IMG/VR virus record: IMGVR_UViG_3300024239_000011 | Location: 80,303 to 144,302 of that record | Source of the DNA: a virus | Strand: one strand, 5' to 3' | Length of the DNA stretch: 64,000 bases | Shown here: one piece after another, positions 2,914 through 57,416 of the stretch | Layout: each line of letters opens with the position of its first letter | Position numbering within the stretch: the stretch's first letter is position 1 | Program-made: the position numbers and the translations under genes | Notes under the pieces: model-generated | What the model was told of the DNA's origin: nothing | The model's database searches: none | The model's input: only the letters and a program-made list of their open reading frames with translations

Positions 2914-2935
2914 GGTCTTTTAGTTGGTCGAGAAT

Positions 2936-3017
2936 GGTGCCGGGTGAGGGACTCGAACCCCCGATGTTTGTATCCCGACTTACGAAGTCGGTGCTGTCGC
3001 CGCTGAGCCAACCCGGC
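2936..3017 (-). tRNA. tRNA-Thr(CGT) with enlarged (~12 nt) variable region
   Basis: acceptor GCCGGGT/ACCCGGC, anticodon arm CCGAC-TTCGTAA-GTCGG, T arm GGGGG-TTCGAGT-CCCTC, CCA encoded; paralog of tRNA at 25116. Confidence 0.6.
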
Positions 3018-3838: not shown

Positions 3839-3905
3839 TGGCGTCCCCGAACCTGCGACCTTCAATTTAGGAGATTGACGCTCTTCCAATCTGAGCTACG
3901 GGGAC
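3839..3905 (-). pseudogene. tRNA-Arg(CCT)-like with deletion of most of the T arm
   Basis: acceptor GTCCCCG/CGGGGAC+G+CCA, D arm GCTC/GAGC, anticodon arm TCAAT-CTCCTAA-ATTGA, but only GCAGGTT remains between variable loop and acceptor 3' strand (66 nt total). Confidence 0.4.
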
Positions 3906-13347: not shown

Positions 13348-13425
13348 TAAACTTGGTGGAGCCTGCCCGAAACGAATTTTCGACGTTGATAAATACATCG
13401 TGAACCAAAACAACAAGGCTCCACG

Positions 13426-16109: not shown

Positions 16110-16193
16110 GATGGTAGATTGGCGATCCTGAGAGGATTCGAACCCCCCTTTTCAGCATCCGACTACGGTTAAGCGGGTAGAAGCCGCCCCCGG
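16110..16193 (-). tRNA. 84-nt type II tRNA, anticodon unresolved
   Basis: acceptor GATCCTG/CAGGATC+G+CCA, T arm GGGGG-TTCGAAT-CCTCT; D stem GCCG/CGGC with 4-nt loop; anticodon arm ambiguous (possible CTTCTAC loop, anticodon TCT, or Leu/Ser type). Confidence 0.45.
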
Positions 16194-16353
16194 CTACAGG
16201 ATCAAATTTCTATACTTCCACTCCGTTATTTGGTATGGTCGAAGCCTTGGCGGCTACCGCCAAGGACATCTACTCCCAGTTGACCGGGTTTGAAGACCCC
16301 GCAGCTATTTCCGCTTTCTTCGACGGACAGCGCGTCGGTCCTGCCAACTAAAT

Positions 16354-18614: not shown

Positions 18615-18706
18615 TGGCTCCCACTTGAGGTTTCGAACCTCACCCCGCATCGCTGCGAGACTTCCGGTTAACAGCCGGATACCTTCACCAAGCCGGTCCA
18701 GTGGGA
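18615..18706 (-). tRNA. type II (long variable arm) tRNA, anticodon GTT (Asn codons), G73
   Basis: acceptor TCCCACT/AGTGGGA, D ACC/GGT, perfect anticodon arm TCCGG-CTGTTAA-CCGGA, variable arm with CGCA/TGCG hairpin, T arm TGAGG-TTCGAAA-CCTCA, CCA. Confidence 0.55.
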
Positions 18707-19272: not shown

Positions 19273-19320
19273 AGTCGAACCGGACTATGAGTATTTAGCA
19301 AACCTTGTTAATTATGGATA

Positions 19321-19410
19321 TGGAGGACACGGTGGGAATTGAACCCACGAGGGGCTTTCGCCCGTGCGATTAAAAGTCGCATGTTCTCAACCAACAAGAA
19401 CGTCGTGTCC
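19321..19410 (-). tRNA. type II tRNA, anticodon TTT (Lys codons), U73
   Basis: acceptor GGACACG/CGTGTCC, D GTTC/GAAC, anticodon arm TGCGA-CTTTTAA-TCGCA, variable arm GGGC-GAAA-GCCC, T arm GTGGG-TTCAATT-CCCAC. Confidence 0.55.
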
Positions 19411-19569: not shown

Positions 19570-19654
19570 TGGAGCGGGTAGGGGGAATCGAACCCCTTTC
19601 CAGTTAAGGGCTTGCTTGGAAGGCAAGTGAGCAATCCATTGCTCGACTACCCGC
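19570..19654 (-). tRNA. type II tRNA, anticodon TCC (Gly codons), U73
   Basis: acceptor GCGGGTA/TACCCGC, D GAGC/GCTC, anticodon arm CTTGC-CTTCCAA-GCAAG, variable hairpin CCCTT/AAGGG, T-loop TTCGATT. Confidence 0.5.
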
Positions 19655-19666
19655 ATATTGTGATGT

Positions 19667-19754
19667 TGGAGACGCGAGTGGGAGTCGAACCCACCTGACC
19701 TTTCGGTACAAACGGTTTTGCAGACCGCCGACTAAACCGCTCATCCATCGCGCC
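19667..19754 (-). tRNA. type II tRNA, anticodon GCA (Cys codons), U73
   Basis: acceptor GGCGCGA/TCGCGTC (G2:U71), anticodon arm GCGGT-CTGCAAA-ACCGT, variable ACC-GAAA-GGT, T arm GTGGG-TTCGACT-CCCAC. Confidence 0.5.
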
Positions 19755-19946
19755 CGTTTAAATTGGTTGCTGGATGCACCCTCTCACATCCCGGTCGAGC
19801 GTCCACGACCTTTCAGATCAAGTAACGACACCGCTTATCGGGGTCCAGCACTCCCGACTCACCGTTGCATGCCGATAACCCCATGTCGTCGGGGTCGTCA
19901 GCAGGGGCTTCGGTGAGGGTAGGCGATAGGTGAACATCGCCTATCT

Positions 19947-20028: not shown

Positions 20029-20102
20029 TGGTAGTCCCTGGCGGAATCGAACCACCATCAAACGCTTATCGGGCGCTCGCACTACCGTTGTGCTAAGGGA
20101 CT
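20029..20102 (-). tRNA. tRNA-Ile(GAT)-like with C33
   Basis: acceptor AGTCCCT/AGGGACT, anticodon arm AGCGC-CCGATAA-GCGTT, T arm GGTGG-TTCGATT-CCGCC; paralog of 23869. Confidence 0.45.
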
Positions 20103-20152
20103 AAAAGGATACGGTCGCAACAGGTAGGAATCGAACCTTTCCAGACCAAGGA

Positions 20153-20178
20153 TTATCAACACCGATTTCTGTTGATAA
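20153..20178. repeat. 9-bp perfect inverted repeat between two tRNA-like T-arm fragments
   Basis: TTATCAACA-ccgatttc-TGTTGATAA. Confidence 0.6.
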
Positions 20179-20365
20179 CGAAGGGGATCGAACCCTTCAT
20201 CTACCGGCATGCCTTTACAGGGTGGTACCCGACCAGGGCTGTTACTTACCTTGACACCTCCGACATTGCTCCCTCCCCGACATCCGGAGTAGGAGAGTTC
20301 ACGCCGTTTTCGGTGCTTCGGTCAACGGTTGACCCCGGCATCAATCTCCACTATCCTACTCGCGG

Positions 20366-20484
20366 TCTGCTGTAGGATCAGTTGGTAGAGAGAACCACCC
20401 CTCGTGAGGCGTAAGCCTCCCGGTGAAGGACCGTAATGCCGGGGATAATGGTTGGCCGTGGGTTCGAGTCCCACCAGCAGACCA
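20366..20484 (+). tRNA. plus-strand oversized tRNA-like (~117 nt)
   Basis: perfect acceptor TCTGCTG/CAGCAGA, D-loop-like AGTTGGTAGAG, canonical T arm GTGGG-TTCGAGT-CCCAC then CCA; ~42 extra nt between D region and T arm. Confidence 0.4.
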
Positions 20485-21636: not shown

Positions 21637-22425
21637 ATGCTAAATACTTGCATGGAACCAAACATTATAAATGAAATACGGTCGAAGCGACGTGATGGAT
21701 ATAGTCTTCAGTGGCTATCTCGTGAATATAATGTCGCAGTTGGCACCATACGATACCATACTAAGGGCATCCTTGTTAATAAAACCCCACATACATTGAT
21801 ACAAGAGAAGCCAATCATCGTACCAATACCATCCGAGGATTGGGCATATTTTTGGGGATTTTATACTGGGGATGGTTGTTTAACGCAAATGACAAGAAGT
21901 TATTCAATAAGTATTTCCTGTGACATCAAGTATGAATATTTGATTGCGAATTATAGTGCTATTCTTTCTGATTTATTCAGACGCGAAGCAAAAATTTACA
22001 AAACCAAACGGAATTGTGCAATCGTTCGTATTCACGGGGTTGACCTACCCAACATTCTTCAGCTACCACCGGGGGCGAAAACTGAAGAGTATAAAGTCCC
22101 AGAGTGGATATTTTCAGATAGAAAATACGCAGTTCAATTTCTAAAAGGTCTTATAGAAACTGACGGAAGTTGTTACCGACGAGATATAACACAATATGGT
22201 GTCATGTTCACTCAAAAAAACAAAACGATATTCGACTATTACAGCACCGCAATGTCTCTTTGTGATTACTCATTTACCAAGAGTAAAGGTAATGCTTACC
22301 AAGCACAGACATCAACCAAAAACGGTGCAAAGGAAATGATTGATGAATTAAGGCTTCATCAAAAGATGCGAACATATTCAAGAAAAAATGGCGCGGGTAC
22401 GGAGAATCGAACTCCGACTCCTTGA
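21637..22425 (+). CDS. LAGLIDADG homing endonuclease
   Basis: two LAGLIDADG motifs (FWGFYTGDGCL and FLKGLIETDGS); AT-rich; 3' end overlaps the duplicated tRNA-Gly(GCC) copy. Confidence 0.8.
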   Translation: MLNTCMEPNIINEIRSKRRDGYSLQWLSREYNVAVGTIRYHTKGILVNKTPHTLIQEKPIIVPIPSEDWAYFWGFYTGDGCLTQMTRSYSISISCDIKYEYLIANYSAILSDLFRREAKIYKTKRNCAIVRIHGVDLPNILQLPPGAKTEEYKVPEWIFSDRKYAVQFLKGLIETDGSCYRRDITQYGVMFTQKNKTIFDYYSTAMSLCDYSFTKSKGNAYQAQTSTKNGAKEMIDELRLHQKMRTYSRKNGAGTENRTPTP

Positions 22426-23320: not shown

Positions 23321-23409
23321 TGGAGAACCGGGTGGGAATCGAACCCACGACGGGCTTTCGCCAGCAGTTTAAGAGACTGTTCCTACCAACCAACAGTAGG
23401 CTCCGGTTC
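23321..23409 (-). tRNA. type II tRNA, anticodon CTT (Lys codons), U73
   Basis: acceptor GAACCGG/CCGGTTC, D CCTA/TAGG, anticodon loop CTCTTAA, variable GGC-GAAA-GCC, T arm GTGGG-TTCGATT-CCCAC; paralog of 19321. Confidence 0.55.
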
Positions 23410-23597: not shown

Positions 23598-23673
23598 TGG
23601 TTGCGGGGGTGGGATTTGCACACCACGACCTCTTGGGTATGAACCAAGTAAGCTACTGCTGCTCTACCCCGCA
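23598..23673 (-). tRNA. tRNA-Met(CAT), copy 1 of 80-nt near-perfect duplicate
   Basis: acceptor TGCGGGG/CCCCGCA, anticodon arm CTTGG-TTCATAC-CCAAG, CCA; copy at 23986. Confidence 0.6.
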
Positions 23674-23985: not shown

Positions 23986-24061
23986 TGGTTGCGGGGGTGG
24001 GATTTGCACACCACGACCTCTTGGGTATGAACCAAGCAAGCTACTGCTGCTCTACCCCGCA
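23986..24061 (-). tRNA. tRNA-Met(CAT), copy 2 of duplicate
   Basis: one mismatch relative to 23598..23673. Confidence 0.6.
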
Positions 24062-25115: not shown

Positions 25116-25198
25116 TGGCGCCGGATGAGGGACTCGAACCCCCGGTGTTGGTATGCCGCGTTACAAAGGCGGTGCTGTCGCCACTGAGCCAATCCGGC
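25116..25198 (-). tRNA. tRNA-Thr(TGT) with enlarged variable region
   Basis: acceptor GCCGGAT/ATCCGGC, anticodon loop TTTGTAA, T arm GGGGG-TTCGAGT-CCCTC; paralog of 2936..3017. Confidence 0.6.
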
Positions 25199-26121: not shown

Positions 26122-26352
26122 ATGAAACCTCGTTTTGGCGCGTTCCTAATAGTATTTAGCAGACACCACAAGAAACGCGCCAAAACAGCGCAAAATGTTA
26201 TTGATGCACCACATTTTGCTGGGTGCTCAAACATATCAGCACTGGAAACCAGAGGGTGGGCTACCACCATCGCTGTGAGTTACGCGCCTACGCACGCTCT
26301 CACTCCCTACCAGATACCTAGCTTTCCCCTCTCGGGTACCGGCTTTACAAAA

Positions 26353-28990: not shown

Positions 28991-30246
28991 TAGATTTCCA
29001 CGGCGTGAGATTACCGCCATGAAGGATGGGTCTTTGGAACCGTACCGCGTAGCTTGCGACCAGCGTTAATTCCTAACATCCATGGGCTTTTGACCCATAT
29101 CCCACCAGAGCCGCTTTTTTTAGCGAGTAGCTTATCTCGCGTCGTTGGTGATTACTCGGTGTCTCTTCCACAGAGATAGGTCAGCTAAACCCACCAATGC
29201 AGCGCCCACACCAAACTGCTTCGCTTTGCGGGCTAGGCAGCACCTCCTTCCTTACGGGGAGGCGTTAGGCTCCTTCTCATCACCAACCGGGACAGGCTTT
29301 TGCGTTTTTGCATATCAAAGCCATGATTGATGCCGGATTCTCACCCGGCGGGCACCCTATCAGTGACGTGCTGTCCCAGTCCCTCCATGAGTTTTTGACC
29401 CACAGAATTATAGACACGCCACGTACTTTTCTGCTTGCAAGCATACTCAGCGGTTTTTCAAGTTCCAGTCCCCACGGGCATTACGCTTAGGGTCCAGCAA
29501 CTTTCAAACTGTCTTTCGCCCTTGGCTGCGAACCTCGGACTACGGCAGTAATGTACCATATTACCAGTCTCGGCACCACCCGTTAGCTGGAACATCCTCA
29601 TTGGGTTGGTAGCCCTCCGAAGATGTTGTCTATGACACAAAACGTCCACAGACTATCCCTTAGTCTTCCACTTGGACTGGTTTTGCCATGGAGGGGTTCG
29701 TCACCCTCTTCCCTGATCGCCCTTTCTGTTCTCACCTCTCGGCGGAACTCGGATTGAACAGAGTTCGTTCCCATGCCGTCGTCAGTTTTATTCACCGCCT
29801 GCTCTCGCAACCGATGACCACCCTCTCGGGTGAGACTGGGACTTGCTTAGATGAACCGTATTGCTACGGCGGGGTTATCGTAGGGATTTCCGCCTTTACA
29901 CGAGTTGCCTCGTGCTATTCTTATGGACGCCAAGCCGCCCAATCTATCGATTAACAAATTCAAAGAGCAAGCTGAGTTAATCTACCCAGCTAAACCAGCC
30001 TTTCGACCGGCGAGGCACGGTTTATACCGTTCCTCTTTTTCTTCGTCAACAACTATTTTCGTTCGTCGCGATTTTTATTTCGCTTCGTCCCGAGCGTTCG
30101 TTGTCGCCGTCGAAGTGAGGTGTTTATATCTTTCCTCATGGGAACCGTCAACACCTTTTTCCATAATAATGCGATTTTTATCCGGTCGTATTGACCGTTT
30201 GGTTTTACAACGCTACAATGTATTGAAACTATACAAGGTTTATATC

Positions 30247-30489
30247 ATGACCACACATTGTCATTATCAGCAAGTCGTTGTTGACCCTGGCGGCAATCCG
30301 CGCACGGTTCTCGCCCTCGACAGCTTCGCGATGGATGAAATTCGGCGTGGGCTGGAACTGGTCGCCCGTGAGAAAACGGGAGGCACCACCGATGCCAAGC
30401 GAAACACCCTGCTGGGCGAGTTCAACATCGCCATGGGTCAATCGGAAACCGAACTTCGTCGGTTGCCCCGGAATTCGGACGAGGAATAA
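30247..30489 (+). CDS. hypothetical small protein
   Basis: 81-aa ORF; weak RBS. Confidence 0.3.
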   Translation: MTTHCHYQQVVVDPGGNPRTVLALDSFAMDEIRRGLELVAREKTGGTTDAKRNTLLGEFNIAMGQSETELRRLPRNSDEE

Positions 30490-33545: not shown

Positions 33546-33971
33546 TTACCCCAACATACGCAGGATAAACGGAACGCTTGGGTCACGAACTTCAATGATT
33601 GCGTTCCACGGCACGAATACCGAAGTTGCAACCCCACTGAAGTAAATTACCACCGTGAACCCTTCATCAGAAATTTCCAGATCATGGAACTGGTTCTGAA
33701 GCACGATGACAGTTTCCCCACGCAAATGAAGGGGGAACCCCGATACCCCGAAAATCGTGGTATCGAGGGTGATGTAGAAATGGTGTCCGTGATCATCAAC
33801 ATTAGGATCATCACGGAAATTGGATAAGACCTCACGAATCATCCGAATGTTTGCAAGATGGTGTTCTCGCCGGAAGATACCGTCGTAATCAAATGCAGTG
33901 GGACTGTTCCCGGTCGCCGCTGATTTGTCTACCTGGGATTTTTTACCAGGGAAATGAATTACGTTTGTCAT
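33546..33971 (-). CDS. sspB: SspB-like (ClpXP adaptor fold) protein
   Basis: GETVIVLQNQFHDLEISDEGFTVVIYFSGV...VFVPWNAIIEV parallels the SspB core; ATGA overlap with upstream NTase gene. Confidence 0.5.
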   Translation of the reverse strand: MTNVIHFPGKKSQVDKSAATGNSPTAFDYDGIFRREHHLANIRMIREVLSNFRDDPNVDDHGHHFYITLDTTIFGVSGFPLHLRGETVIVLQNQFHDLEISDEGFTVVIYFSGVATSVFVPWNAIIEVRDPSVPFILRMLG

Positions 33972-35137
33972 CAGTCAATCAACTGGATTGTTTTCGAGGA
34001 TGGCTTGGGCTTGATCTTGGTAGGTTCCAAATCTTTTTCGGAGGGGTCTACCACACGGGTCACCAGGGCACGCTTGAGACGGACGACGCCACCTTCTTCA
34101 AGGATGATGTCGTTAACACATCCCGGCTTCAATTCAATTACTACAGCCTTGTCGCGATAGGTGCAATAATCAAACGCCTGTTTAATCGTCTGCTTGGCGT
34201 AGATGTATGGGTCACCAGACTGCACGTATTCACCAACTACATACTTAAATGTTGGTTTGTACATCGAGACTAGCTCATCGCCATTACGATAGACCTTCTT
34301 GAAGAACACACGATCCTTAAAGATTTCACCAACATCAACCATCTTACCATTTACTGGGCGGCAAGGAACCGGCTCATAGTCATCGCTATCCGTATAGACC
34401 CGTGCATAGAACTTTCCGTTCAGTTGATAATACTCGATCTCACGTTTACCAACTGCGAGAATGACTTCTTCTGCGCTCCCTACAGGGGATTTAGTCGGAA
34501 AAGTCAGACGGTCGTTCATTGCAGCAAACATGTTCTCTATTGAGAACGGGGTATCTTCAGGTACCCGCACCGCCTCGCCGTAAATACCGCCAATCTGATC
34601 AACCAGTTCATCCCATGAATTGATTGGTTTCAGCGCACAAGCCGCCAGGATTTTGAAGTTCTCAAACTTACCAATGGTGTATCCACGTTCCTTGTACTTG
34701 TTTACACGCCATGCGGACGCATACGGGAACCGTGTCTTCGGGTTAAAACGAAGAACTCGCTGACAGCAATCTTCCAAAAAATCGTCGTGGAGAACGAATT
34801 TCTTGGTATCAACGTCATATGCCCCCATGCACACCGTAAAGTCGAAACATTCAAAAATTTTCTCAGCAGTTTCGAACGTATCAAAATGCATGATTTGGAT
34901 CGGGATATCATCGCCCTGCACAAATGTCACGGCACGTTCCGAAACATCGGCACAAAAGTACCCGCTCTCGAACATCAAATGTACTAAATCCTCAAACGCC
35001 GCTTCCGTTTTCGGATATACATCGATGTCGTTGATTGGTTTGTTCGTATATATGGAGGTAATTGAGCCACCCGCAATAAAGCAATCTTTGGCTTCCTTGG
35101 GGAGATACCCGGCTATCATCGTTGCCTTTGTCATCAC
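33971..35137 (-). CDS. tRNA nucleotidyltransferase / poly(A) polymerase family (Pol-beta superfamily) enzyme
   Basis: head-domain motifs GGS-x12-DIDVY and FECFDFTVCMGAYDV (RRDFTINA-like) then RVLRF. Confidence 0.65.
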   Translation of the reverse strand: MMTKATMIAGYLPKEAKDCFIAGGSITSIYTNKPINDIDVYPKTEAAFEDLVHLMFESGYFCADVSERAVTFVQGDDIPIQIMHFDTFETAEKIFECFDFTVCMGAYDVDTKKFVLHDDFLEDCCQRVLRFNPKTRFPYASAWRVNKYKERGYTIGKFENFKILAACALKPINSWDELVDQIGGIYGEAVRVPEDTPFSIENMFAAMNDRLTFPTKSPVGSAEEVILAVGKREIEYYQLNGKFYARVYTDSDDYEPVPCRPVNGKMVDVGEIFKDRVFFKKVYRNGDELVSMYKPTFKYVVGEYVQSGDPYIYAKQTIKQAFDYCTYRDKAVVIELKPGCVNDIILEEGGVVRLKRALVTRVVDPSEKDLEPTKIKPKPSSKTIQLID

Positions 35138-35673: not shown

Positions 35674-36234
35674 ATGTTGATCATGCTACTAGTGACGTGG
35701 CGCGATGATGACGCGGTGGAGCGTCAGGCAAAAACTCTATTACATCCACGTGGATGGTTTGTCGCAGAGACGTATACACCAGACGAGGATGAGGATGATG
35801 GAACCACGCTATTCCGCATTGAACCGTTCGTCGGACAACGAACAACTGAAATCCCGGACAAGCTTTATCACGCCACCCCTGCACAAAATGTCCCGCGCAT
35901 TCTCAAGCAAGGGCTGATCCCACAACGGGGAAAGCACACCGGAATGTTCGCGGCTACACCAAACCGAATCTATATCGCCAAATCACTTGCCTACGCCGTT
36001 GATATCAAGAATATGCTTCAGAAGCACGATGGCTACAGACAAGACTACGCGATCATCGAGATCGATACGACGAAACTCCGGAAGGGGACGAAATTCTATA
36101 TCGACCCGCAATACCATTCTGGCGTCTACACGACCACGCCTGTTCCACCCGCCGCGTTGCGCGTACTCGGCAATGAGGAAGTGGAACAGTGTCCGGAACC
36201 GGATTTCGACTACGAACTAGCGATGAATGTCTAA
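35674..36234 (+). CDS. kptA: RNA 2'-phosphotransferase (Tpt1/KptA family) with N-terminal extension
   Basis: KLYHATP...GLIPQRGKHTGMFAA...DYAIIEIDTTKLRKGTKFYIDP..GVYTTTPVPP. Confidence 0.7.
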   Translation: MLIMLLVTWRDDDAVERQAKTLLHPRGWFVAETYTPDEDEDDGTTLFRIEPFVGQRTTEIPDKLYHATPAQNVPRILKQGLIPQRGKHTGMFAATPNRIYIAKSLAYAVDIKNMLQKHDGYRQDYAIIEIDTTKLRKGTKFYIDPQYHSGVYTTTPVPPAALRVLGNEEVEQCPEPDFDYELAMNV

Positions 36235-36334
36235 CAACCGAGCGATATAGCGTTCTGCGATTTGATCATGAAAAAGCCCCTTAATGGTCCAAACCTGCAT
36301 TAGTATTTAGCAAGTTCTCCCATTAAGGGGCTAT

Positions 36335-36629
36335 TGGATCGGGGAGAGGGATTCGAACCCCCATAAAGTGGACCCTTACCACTTCGACTTTCGCCGCCCT
36401 CTTTCGAGGTTTGTGGTCTGGACTTTATCTTCACCATAGCTTGCGCCGTAGGTGCTGCCCGTCAAGTCTCTACACCTTCCGCTCTCGCGGCTTGGCTCGG
36501 GATTGGCATTTTACAGCGTTCCCCGAATTTGAGCAGTTCTACATCAAAGGTTTCCCTTTAAGCATCCGGTTTTCCTCTGTGTGGGAGGAAGGTAAAAACC
36601 ACTGGTCCTACCGTTAGACGATCCCCGAA
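36335..36629 (-). tRNA. tRNA gene (best fit Gln-UUG; Lys-UUU or Pro-UGG possible) interrupted in the anticodon loop by a ~221-nt group I (IC3-type) intron
   Basis: 5' exon 36596..36629 TCGGGGA-TC-GTC-TAACGGTAG-GAC-C-AGTGG-TTTT; 3' exon 36335..36374 GGT-CCACT-TTAT-GGGGG-TTCGAAT-CCCTC-TCCCCGA-T-CCA; intervening RNA contains GGATGCTTAAAGGGAAACC, AATCCCGAGCCAAGCCG, GGAAGGTGTAGAGACTTGACGGG and AAGATAAAGTCC, matching the conserved core of cyanobacterial/plastid tRNA-Leu(UAA) group I introns as I recall them. Confidence 0.55.
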
Positions 36630-36678
36630 TAGCGGTGGGAGGTATTTAGCAAAACCCCAACCCCACCGCAATAACTTT

Positions 36679-37272
36679 TTACCATCGTGTCGGTAACTGA
36701 GCTTCACCCGCAATCAAGGACGGCTCATAGATAATATCCTTCGGGTCATGATCTTTGTACCCAAACCCACGATACTTTTTCAACCGATCAGCCTTGACAT
36801 CACCACCCGGCTTGGATGGACGCAACGTCATAGTCTTATTGTCCCAGAAGAAGTTATCGGTACATATCACTACGCGATTAAACACGTCAAGCGCACCTTG
36901 ACACACCGTCATATCAAACGACTCAAAAATACTCATGGGCGAATCGAAAGTACGTTCGACCAACTGTATACTAACATAGTGATCTTCTCCGATCAGAATG
37001 CTTTCATAGCTAGTGGCGTTGGTACTATTGTAGGCAACTTCCTCACCACCCGCATATTCAGACAAATAATCATTGAATTTTGCATGATCGTTGCTCGACC
37101 GTGTGTAGCAGTCCACATCACCATCTAGAAGATTACGACCAGTTAGAAGCCGAGAAACAAATCCCCCGGCAATCATAACCTCGACCCCACTATCACTGAT
37201 GAACTTGAAAAGTTCTTTAAATGGATAATCATGGGGGTATTTCTGGGTTAGACTGAACAACGGTATGATCAT
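36679..37272 (-). CDS. short paralog of the tRNA-NTase/poly(A) polymerase head domain
   Basis: AGGFVSRLLTG-x-DGDVDCY and FESFDMTVCQGALDV motifs. Confidence 0.55.
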   Translation of the reverse strand: MIIPLFSLTQKYPHDYPFKELFKFISDSGVEVMIAGGFVSRLLTGRNLLDGDVDCYTRSSNDHAKFNDYLSEYAGGEEVAYNSTNATSYESILIGEDHYVSIQLVERTFDSPMSIFESFDMTVCQGALDVFNRVVICTDNFFWDNKTMTLRPSKPGGDVKADRLKKYRGFGYKDHDPKDIIYEPSLIAGEAQLPTRW

Positions 37273-51884: not shown

Positions 51885-52021
51885 CGTTACCCCAAGAATG
51901 CTCGGATTTTAGGAGAGTATTATGGGAACCTATGCGGTTGTCAAAAAGTTTCGCACGTCCCGAGGCAGTTGGTAGACGTGTTTTGCTAAATACGCATGTC
52001 CCTCTTCCAATCAGGTGGAAC

Positions 52022-57253: not shown

Positions 57254-57416
57254 TTGATACCTCCATATAAAACACAGAGGTATTTAGCAAATTGGTATAC
57301 GCATCATGTCTACACTGCAAAATTAAAGCTTTTGGCCGGTCGCAACATCTTTTTGTACGACTTGACAATACTACTCAGGGCTGTTATCTTGGCGGAAATT
57401 TCCAAGGAACTTCACC

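Follow-up and report, generated by a model that had tools for sequence, protein, structure and literature searches.

Bacterial and plastid tRNA-Leu introns of the IC3 group are compact group I ribozymes without an ORF, inserted after a U in the anticodon loop (site 34/35), with GAAA-capped P2 and P9 hairpins and core blocks that include CAAAUUCGGGGAA, AAUCCCGAGCCAAGCC, GGAAGGUGUAGAGACU-GACGGGCAGCACCU, AGUCCAGACCAC and GGCGGCGAAAG-CGAAGUGGUA-G. The IC3 intron of Azoarcus pre-tRNA-Ile(CAU), for which a cryo-EM structure is available, is likewise a small ribozyme in the anticodon loop (site 36/37); its P1 is very short, and the anticodon stem holds its exons (PMC13168695). A further set has been described in Patescibacteria: these introns are almost all of the IA type, lie in bacterial tRNAs with GUN anticodons at the site after U35 and self-splice precisely there in vitro, and the genes that carry them are missed, or given a shifted junction, by annotation tools (PMC13011429). 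The host and site classes of tRNA-borne group I introns number at least 21, at nearly every position of the loop (Williams 2020; Nakagawa 2026, PMC13011429). As for phages, a 2014 review stated that all introns then known lay in protein-coding genes, despite the many tRNA genes of phages (PMC3984707), and our literature searches found no later paper describing ribozyme introns in phage tRNAs.

The locus described here lies in a 64,000-nt stretch of viral DNA, referred to below as the window. It is very likely a tRNA-Gln(UUG) gene in which a group I intron of the IC3 tRNA lineage, 220 nt long and free of ORFs, interrupts position 35/36 of the tRNA, a reading drawn from the sequence and its comparison with relatives. 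All of the core blocks named above recur identically in the window intron, as do the GAAA-capped P2 and P9 hairpins, the lack of an ORF and the insertion after a U. It differs from the bacterial and plastid tRNA-Leu introns in its probable host (Gln, not Leu), in its probable site (35/36, not 34/35), in an extra L1 hairpin of about 20 nt and in its phage-like genome. The small size of the ribozyme, the very short P1 and the holding of the exons by the anticodon stem are features in common with the Azoarcus intron, which differs in site and host and which presumably also resembles the window intron in sequence. The Patescibacteria introns share the site after U35 and differ in type, in host tRNAs and in being bacterial.

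The split gene and its group I element

The gene lies on the minus strand, as do all 39 tRNA genes that standard ARAGORN finds in the window, and consists of two tRNA halves around a 220-nt insert (Table 1). It was missed by ARAGORN in its standard mode and by the Rfam model for tRNA; in intron mode, ARAGORN joined the halves into a 74-nt cloverleaf with a 220-nt intron. From its 5' end the first half reads UCGGGGA (acceptor strand, 36628-36622), UC, the D arm GUCU-AACGGUA-GGAC, C, the anticodon-stem strand AGUGG and UUUU. The second reads GGU, the complementary strand CCACU, the 4-nt variable loop UUAU, the T arm GGGGG-UUCGAAU-CCCUC, the acceptor strand UCCCCGA (36345-36339), U73 (36338) and an encoded CCA (36337-36335). 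Together the exons complete a perfect cloverleaf, and the CCA end is intact. All of the arms listed in the initial annotation are present on the minus strand, with two corrections: nucleotide 1 of the tRNA lies at 36628 and not at 36629, and the intervening sequence measures 220 nt rather than about 221 nt.

The 294-nt pre-tRNA was identical in independent assemblies of two other samples, and in a third further sample its first 122 nt, which are all that the contig holds, were identical too. One of the full-length contigs diverges elsewhere (99.6% identity over 5.2 kb), yet its pre-tRNA is 100% conserved. Because the pre-tRNA is identical in independent assemblies, one of which differs elsewhere, an assembly artefact is ruled out. 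Contigs with the flanking gene were examined for variants of the pre-tRNA and none was found, the pre-tRNA being identical in every one.

Table 1. Features of the split gene, its intron and its flanks, given in window positions; helices are those of the comparative model unless stated otherwise
Feature	Position	Strand	Remarks
Upstream hairpin GCGGUGGG / CCCACCGC	36632..36669	-	ends 3 nt before the tRNA; possible promoter/leader element
5' exon, probable tRNA-Gln(UUG)	36595..36628	-	34 nt; acceptor 5' strand, D arm, AGUGG, loop U32-U35
Group I (IC3-like) intron	36375..36594	-	220 nt, no ORF; starts UACC, ends GGUAAG; omega-G 36375
Extra L1 hairpin UUCCUC / GAGGAA	36572..36590	-	predicted in the MFE fold; -13.3 kcal/mol
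Candidate internal guide sequences for P1	36564..36575	-	placed by positional homology, A1 columns 35-38
P2 hairpin, GAAA loop	36544..36561	-	compensatory changes in 7/7 pairs across the family
P3-P6 domain and P7 5' strand	36455..36536	-	from the column-to-coordinate map of A1
P3	36536-31/36460-55	-	
P4	36526-21/36502-36497	-	
P5	36517-16/36507-06	-	
P6	36496-94/36476-74	-	
P6a	36490-88/36481-79	-	
P7	36468-64 (5' strand), 36425-21 (3' strand)	-	pseudoknot, guanosine-binding helix
Region of P8 and P7 3' strand	36421..36454	-	
P8	36454-51/36435-32	-	3/4 pairs compensatory
3' module	36375..36417	-	P9.0, two P9 hairpins, then AAG with omega-G 36375
P9.0	36417-13 (ACCAC) x 36382-78 (GUGGU)	-	
Two GAAA-capped P9 hairpins	36409-36398 and 36397-36384	-	
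3' exon	36335..36374	-	40 nt; G36 G37 U38, CCACU, UUAU, T arm, acceptor, U73, CCA
Downstream 12-bp hairpin GCCCCUUAAUGG / CCAUUAAGGGGC, then UUUUU	36271..36331	-	second TTGCTAAATAC in the loop

The Rfam group I model (RF00028, Intron_gpI) matched positions 36395-36598 on the minus strand over its full length (model 1-253) with 52.1 bits, where the gathering score is 50; the E-value is 2.4e-10 over the window as a whole and 2.3e-12 locally. This model is insensitive for the present lineage, since it gave no match at its gathering threshold to the relatives L001-L004, of which L001 and L002 are split tRNAs according to ARAGORN. As the score of the window intron clears the threshold only narrowly, independent support was sought in a lineage-specific alignment (A1) of the window intron and 16 viral relatives, 17 sequences in all, the nhmmer profile of which hits a single place in the window (E 5e-49). 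RNAalifold recovered P2, P3, P4, P5, P6, P8, P9.0 and P9 from A1, with compensatory changes in 26 of 41 pairs. The P7 pseudoknot was added to the model by hand before pairs were counted, and the resulting 46 pairs in 10 helices are 95.1% paired, versus 27-46% in slid controls. Both sides of the pair change in 27 of the 46, and the covariation score of 0.494 (at most 0.122 in slid controls) was reached by none of 500 shuffles. P7 is paired in 100% of the 17 sequences and contains an A-U to U-A swap (12:5) in which the window has the minority state; across the P3-P4-P5-P6 domain and P7, pairing per helix is 97-100%.

In the window, helices P2-P9.0 are all intact and the conserved core positions of the family are all retained; the base of the last P9 hairpin has one G-A mismatch. 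An unconstrained MFE fold of the 294-nt precursor (z-score -2.4) formed most of the intron helices as well as the acceptor stem and the T arm. The roughly 20-nt insertion in L1 corresponds to a gap in all 16 relatives in A1. The only ORF listed within the intron is a 68-aa ORF with a TTG start on the opposite strand, and the intron has no homing endonuclease gene; the nearest HNH gene lies 1.4 kb away behind other ORFs and is not counted as part of the element.

The proposal of an IC3 group I intron, tRNA-Leu-like, in the anticodon loop is borne out by the Rfam match, by covariation and by the closest relatives, which are IC3 introns in tRNA genes of viruses and bacteria, mostly Leu(UAA); the core helices P2-P9, the P7 pseudoknot included, are found with covariation behind them. 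Over aligned positions, the window intron is 81-82% identical to IC3-labelled bacterial tRNA introns in the accessible part of Table S5 of PMC13011429, where an IB2 example gives 73% and an IA1 example 79% by the same metric, which is crude and separates the groups modestly. Acidobacteriota Leu and Actinomycetota Lys(UUU) IC3 introns listed in the same part of that table share long identical blocks with the window. The label 'IC3, tRNA-Leu type' seems a fair one on this comparison.

Splice junction and tRNA identity

Eight junctions that leave a 7-nt anticodon loop were enumerated, with a U at position -1 and a terminal omega-G of the intron required. Two passed, UUUU/GGU (anticodon UUG) and UUUUU/GU (anticodon UUU), the slash marking the junction, and no others. 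A UGG anticodon, which the initial annotation had kept beside UUG and UUU while disfavouring it, drops out because its intron would end in A; the other two stand.

Of these, UUUU/GGU makes G36375 the omega-G, at the end of a conserved GGUAAG and 3 nt past the P9.0 strand, as in relatives whose junction is unambiguous. Fourteen of the 16 relatives, those with a clean alignment, keep exactly this 3-nt distance from the P9.0 3' strand, and in the remaining two (L091 and L109) omega-G is shifted by one column by an extra base in the P9.0 strand. Relatives with a unique junction all end in GGUA(A/C)G or a close variant. Base for base, GGCGGCGAAAGUCGAAGUGGUAAG/GGU in the window has the same length as GGCAACGAAAGUUGUAGUGGUAAG/AAA in the tRNA-Leu intron L084. 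An exon that starts with G does not in itself shift the splice site, as the junction GUGGUAAG/GUAA of the tRNA-Thr(UGU) intron L073, whose exon also begins with G, indicates. The 35/36 site is in use elsewhere in the viral lineage, in tRNA-Lys(CUU) (L040 and L086) and tRNA-Lys(UUU) (L095), and in Patescibacteria it has been confirmed as a splice site in vitro, in tRNAs for Asn and Asp (PMC13011429).

The exon sequences point the same way. Nineteen IMG/VR loci share an identical 22-nt segment of the D arm with the window gene, and the intact genes among these are all tRNA-Gln. When the exon body, its loop masked, was compared with 234 distinct tRNAs, the six closest were all Gln (scores 42-35), and Lys was among the worst isotypes, the best Lys scoring 8; the best body match from outside the gene's own query was L061, a tRNA-Gln(UUG). 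The loop UUUUGGU occurs verbatim in L014, an intact viral tRNA-Gln. U36628 and A36339 form a U1-A72 pair, which in an independent set is present in 5 of 11 Gln, 4 of 9 Asn and none of 9 Lys tRNAs; G37 is present in 3 of 11 Gln and again in none of 9 Lys tRNAs. The U1-A72 pair is a hallmark of bacterial tRNA-Gln and tRNA-Asn that is recognised by GatCAB. G37 and U73 are atypical for a textbook bacterial tRNA-Gln, the E. coli tRNA having A37 and G73; among the viral genes, G37 recurs in L031 and L061, and U73 with CCA in L031. Gly(UCC), the second-best body match with the same AGUGG/CCACU stem, was rejected because no junction can give an NCC anticodon.

From the homology of the 3' terminus, the Gln-type exon body, the loop UUUUGGU and the U1-A72 pair with G37, the junction is very probably UUUU/GGU, giving Gln(UUG) and an intron at 35/36, and the preference for Gln(UUG) expressed in the initial annotation is upheld on the placement of omega-G, the body and these two bases. 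Spliced in this way, the 74-nt product is called tRNA-Gln(ttg), with an anticodon that rests on the inferred junction, and folds as a cloverleaf at -26.5 kcal/mol. It would presumably be charged with glutamine, directly or by way of Glu and transamidation, and would then read CAA and CAG.

Cutting one base further 3' (UUUUU/GU, site 36/37) would give the same intron a UUU (Lys) anticodon with G37 and U38. This junction also has U(-1), omega-G and a 7-nt loop, it is the one that ARAGORN reports in intron mode, and 36/37 is one of the classical insertion sites of tRNA group I introns, for instance in Arg (PMC13011429). We nevertheless consider it unlikely: omega-G would lie 4 nt past P9.0 rather than the 3 nt of relatives, the exon body scores 8 against Lys and 42 against Gln, neither U1-A72 nor G37 occurs in the Lys set, and ARAGORN already finds Lys(UUU) and Lys(CUU) genes in the window, which is without a Gln gene. 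The Lys(ttt) label given by ARAGORN in intron mode is a junction error of the kind documented for annotation tools on split tRNA genes in PMC13011429.

P1 does not discriminate between the two. The guide of relatives is a 4-nt sequence directly next to P2, GAGU in Leu and GGAG in Lys introns. In the window GGAU (36567-36564) adjoins P2 in the same way, and any three of the five U's are possible partners for it. The energies of GGA(U) with U33-U35 and with U34-U36 are -11.2 and -10.8 kcal/mol. A longer alternative, GGAAAACC (36575-36568), is complementary to exon GGUUUU(U); its longest pairing, with GGUUUUU, places a U.G wobble at U36, a point in favour of the UUUUU/GU junction, and uses two bases of the anticodon stem. 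Folding and pairing energies of the P1 alternatives are similar and do not separate U35 from U36.

Predicted splicing and its alternatives

With UUUU/GGU as the preferred junction, a conventional course of events can be proposed, in which splicing activity and the exact 5' splice site are predicted. The gene would be transcribed from the minus strand, probably as a small unit of its own, and the intron would fold into the P1-P9 architecture with its P3/P7 pseudoknot. A free guanosine bound in P7 would attack the phosphodiester after U35, which would be held in a short P1 helix by the G-rich guide just upstream of P2. Omega-G (36375), placed by P9.0 and 3 nt downstream of that helix, would then replace the free guanosine, and the 3'-OH of U35 would attack the bond after omega-G, joining UUUU to GGU. 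Ligation would leave a tRNA of 74 nt whose anticodon loop reads UUUUGGU and whose CCA is encoded in the genome; its short 5' leader would be trimmed by RNase P. Ectopic transfer from another tRNA gene is the most likely route by which the intron reached the Gln gene, and we propose that it persists because self-splicing makes it nearly neutral.

A decayed relic, in which splicing is lost or poor and the split gene is a passively carried pseudogene, is distinctly unlikely. The Rfam score only 2 bits over threshold, the unusual 20-nt L1 insertion with a weak 3-bp P1 and the G-A mismatch in P9 would fit such decay. It is harder to reconcile with the retention of every conserved core position and of helices P2-P9.0, with exons that form a perfect cloverleaf and an intact CCA end, with a pre-tRNA that is 100% conserved in a contig diverged elsewhere, and with the gene being the sole candidate tRNA-Gln in an array that looks maintained.

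Two further proposals let the single locus yield more than one tRNA. In the first, which is very unlikely, the choice would be functional: the ribozyme would use either U35 with G36375 or U36 with G36374, giving Gln(UUG) together with either a UUU-anticodon tRNA or a frameshifting tRNA with an 8-nt loop. Such a choice would be possible because the exon ends carry a U-run and a G-run and guide pairing is equal in the two registers; if it occurs, the ratio of products might be set by Mg2+ or GTP levels or by the phage-specific L1 hairpin. In the second, which we rate as even more improbable, the choice of splice site would simply be loose and the product a mixture of Gln(UUG), a UUU-anticodon species and the 8-nt-loop tRNA UUUUUGGU. 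Two legal junctions, isoenergetic P1 registers and the acceptance of all products as tRNAs by ARAGORN, including one with the 4-base anticodon UUUG, are compatible with this; against it, P9.0 sets omega-G at one fixed place throughout the family, splicing of group I introns is generally accurate, and a mixture of tRNAs would be harmful. Finally, the chance that a tRNA 3' fragment lies 294 nt from an unrelated 5' fragment with a coincidental acceptor pairing, a concern raised in the initial annotation, is next to negligible: 5' halves of tRNA-Gln that share this D arm and are cut short do occur (L013, L016, L020, L023, L027 and L029), apparently at prophage att sites, but here the halves complete one cloverleaf, the ribozyme spans exactly from anticodon loop to anticodon loop, and the layout equals that of about 25 other split tRNAs.

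A milder form of the functional proposal, likewise improbable, is that phages deliberately keep self-splicing anticodon-loop introns in U34-type tRNAs (Gln, Lys, Leu-UAA, Ser-UGA, Thr-UGU, Arg-UCU). In that case the introns might time the supply of tRNA, or shield the gene or its precursor from anticodon-directed host nucleases.

Viral relatives and genome context

Scanning IMG/VR for a degenerate core motif yielded 96 loci. According to ARAGORN in intron mode, about 25 different loci among them are tRNA genes that lie within viral tRNA clusters and are interrupted in the anticodon loop. Their hosts are Leu, Ser, Thr, Arg, Lys and Met, and none is Gln. These introns belong to the same lineage as the window intron and share its 3' module; examples are L084 (Leu), L095 (Lys(UUU), 35/36), L040 (Lys(CUU), 35/36), L073 (Thr(UGU)), L091 (Arg(UCU)) and L189 (Ser(UGA)). 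The nearest relative is L084, a viral tRNA-Leu(UAA) intron with 75.7% identity over 205 core columns, and core identity to the window intron is 58-76% among the 19 introns compared. Split tRNAs are also present, unannotated, in the Agrobacterium jumbo phage Atu_ph07 (Leu), in the Gordonia phage Daredevil (Lys(UUU)), whose GGCGGCGAAAGUCGAAGUGG is identical to that of the window, and in the 735-kb huge phage LR756501 (Leu). The other viral IC3 introns differ from that of the window in that none lies in tRNA-Gln and none has the L1 insertion.

Searches for a second Gln host used exact motifs. In IMG/VR, the D arm with the P3/P4 motif gave no match, nor did the intron terminus followed by G and the T arm; the terminus followed by an exon starting G-purine returned Ser(UGA) and coding-gene introns only. 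The terminus, G and T arm gave four matches in GTDB genomes, all chance or tRNA-Ser, and the D arm with the core gave 46 loci in JGI metagenomes, among which two were real introns, both in Leu(UAA). Thus these exact-motif scans of IMG/VR, GTDB species genomes and JGI contigs, together with about 110 loci of the lineage, yielded no other tRNA-Gln host, and none was found in the searchable literature, including the accessible part of the published tables. The absence of other Gln hosts is unproven, since the scans need exact motifs and the published tables are readable in part. An intronless allele (CAGTGGTTTNNGTCCACT) was sought in IMG/VR and gave only chance matches in non-tRNA sequence. Within the window, two further ARAGORN intron calls (20081-20483 and 29513-30404) were rejected, having no match to the IC3-lineage profile and none to Rfam at the gathering threshold.

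The initial annotation had known of no such intron in a phage tRNA array or in a bacterial tRNA-Gln. The second part holds in so far as no other tRNA-Gln host was found; the first does not, as group I introns are common in phage tRNA arrays in public data. IC3 introns are frequent in such arrays, among them those of isolated phages such as Atu_ph07 and Daredevil, and the broader pattern seems to be undescribed; their presence there contradicts the textbook view that phage introns sit in protein-coding genes only (PMC3984707). The window intron itself is mechanistically ordinary. What is new, relative to the searchable literature, is the Gln host and the phage tRNA setting, which add tRNA-Gln(UUG) at 35/36 to the hosts of tRNA-borne group I introns. 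The gene was missed by standard annotation, and without it the array, in which ARAGORN (standard and intron mode) and Rfam find no other tRNA-Gln, would appear to have none; counts of phage tRNA repertoires, and the codon-usage arguments drawn from them, are biased likewise. The locus is of value mainly as a correction to tRNA annotation and as an entry point to a wider, under-reported pattern that merits a survey, and it raises the question whether such introns pass between bacterial and phage genomes by way of tRNA genes.

The metagenomic contig from which the window is taken measures 869,618 bp, and the window carries about 43 tRNA genes. Its encoded proteins include a short ValRS-like synthetase, several free-standing HNH endonucleases and Gad2-like nucleotidyltransferases, and there are baseplate-, tail- and endolysin-like matches; among GenBank phages there was no close DNA relative. 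The source is likely a very large phage, which is unproven because no capsid or terminase gene lies within the window.

The split gene is flanked by two hairpins. The loop of the upstream hairpin carries TTGCTAAATAC (36652-36642), 13 nt upstream of the tRNA, a motif with 8 occurrences in the window where 0.94 would be expected, several of them roughly 25-40 nt upstream of ORF starts. A sigma-70 promoter scan found nothing. The 106-nt context of the motif at the downstream hairpin has an MFE of -37.1 kcal/mol, and this hairpin with its U-run looks like an intrinsic terminator that the terminator scan missed because its loop exceeds 8 nt. The transcription unit would then run from TTGCTAAATAC upstream to the hairpin and U-run downstream.

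Seven viral loci with the same 5' half (L013, L016, L020, L022, L023, L027 and L029) were considered as further split genes and rejected, having no group I match at E<0.01. L016 lies on one contig with L024, and L022 is followed by another tRNA gene. Apart from L022, the 5' half runs into non-tRNA sequence, and we read most of these loci as tRNA fragments like those at att sites.

Unannotated introns in sequenced phages

The IC3 lineage, the family of group I introns of bacterial and viral tRNA genes to which the window's intron belongs, extends to phages already in GenBank. Split tRNA genes whose introns align with this lineage are present in Agrobacterium phage Atu_ph07, Gordonia phage Daredevil and LR756501.1, and none of the three is annotated there. 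The Rfam model RF00028, applied at its gathering threshold to two of these introns, those of Daredevil and LR756501.1, matched neither.

The intron mode of ARAGORN, which joins tRNA halves across an intron, often misplaced the junction in tRNAs split by group I introns (the IMG/VR loci L183, L188 and L191, and the loci L085, L138 and L155), and the isotype label was therefore wrong. Ser(UGA) was reported as His(atg) and Leu(UAA) as Phe(gaa), the Phe calls being those of L085, L138 and L155, and the split tRNA of the window was itself labelled Lys(ttt).

In Pelagibacter phage HTVC120P (MH598807.1, 19433-20607) the annotation divides the capsid protein between two coding sequences, gp29 and gp30. 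The stretch between them matches the core of the window's intron family, so a group I intron probably splits the capsid gene.

Unusual tRNA genes of the window

Long variable regions bring several tRNA genes of the window, with isotypes Cys, Asn, Lys(UUU), Gly(UCC), Cys, Lys(CUU) and Thr, to a length of 83-94 nt. Long variable arms are normally limited to Leu, Ser, Tyr and Sec tRNAs. In most of these genes the extra nucleotides fold into a stem capped by a 4-nt loop; in the Gly gene and both Thr genes they are shown without pairing. Rfam called 19670-19755 a tRNA-Sec (50.6 bits), yet its anticodon is GCA.

A further tRNA-like gene has an 8-nt anticodon loop with the four-base anticodon CUUA; ARAGORN reported it as 'tRNA-???', and in intron mode as Leu(taa) with a 3-nt intron instead. 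Possible readings are a tRNA resembling a frameshift suppressor and a degenerate copy.

Coordinates of the features, in the window unless another sequence is named
Feature	Position (strand)	Remarks
Split tRNA, Atu_ph07	L132 1453-1814; MF403008.1 about 112890-113251	Leu(UAA), 278-nt intron
Split tRNA, Daredevil	L002 479-790; NC_048021.1	Lys(UUU), 238-nt intron
Split tRNA, LR756501.1	L001 543-833	Leu(UAA), 205-nt intron
Long tRNAs	853-946, 18615-18706, 19321-19410, 19570-19654, 19667-19754, 23321-23409, 2935-3017, 25116-25198 (all -)	
tRNA-like gene, anticodon CUUA	16120-16203 (-)	
tRNA-Met(CAU) pair	23601-23673, 23989-24061 (-)	nearly identical; found by Rfam, missed by ARAGORN at default settings
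Short tRNA-like match	3842-3905 (-)	37.4 bits; not accepted by ARAGORN
Genes flanking the split tRNA	36679-37272 (-), 33971-35137 (-), 35674-36234 (+)	two Gad2-like, one with a weak, sub-threshold Tpt1/KptA match
TTGCTAAATAC copies	13386-13396 (+), 19291-19301 (-), 21637-21647 (+), 26152-26162 (-), 36303-36313 (-), 36642-36652 (-), 51983-51993 (+), 57280-57290 (-)	

Genomic surroundings of the split tRNA

The source contig of the window (ENA ERZ27245855 k141_178484) is 869,618 bp long. If it is a phage genome, it is larger than LR756501 (735 kb), the largest within the GenBank phage set searched; its phage nature is unproven, as the window holds no hallmark capsid or terminase genes.

Two of the genes flanking the split tRNA encode Gad2-like (PF26128) nucleotidyltransferase-fold proteins, and the third gave a weak, sub-threshold match to the RNA 2'-phosphotransferase Tpt1/KptA (22.3 bits vs a cutoff of 26). 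Together the three genes give a hint that the neighbourhood serves anti-defence or RNA repair.

The motif TTGCTAAATAC, allowing at most one mismatch, occurs eight times in the window, where chance would give 0.94 copies. Several of these sites precede an ORF start or tRNA 5' end by about 25-40 nt, and several copies are housed in a long hairpin, within its loop. The motif may be a promoter or leader element specific to this genome.
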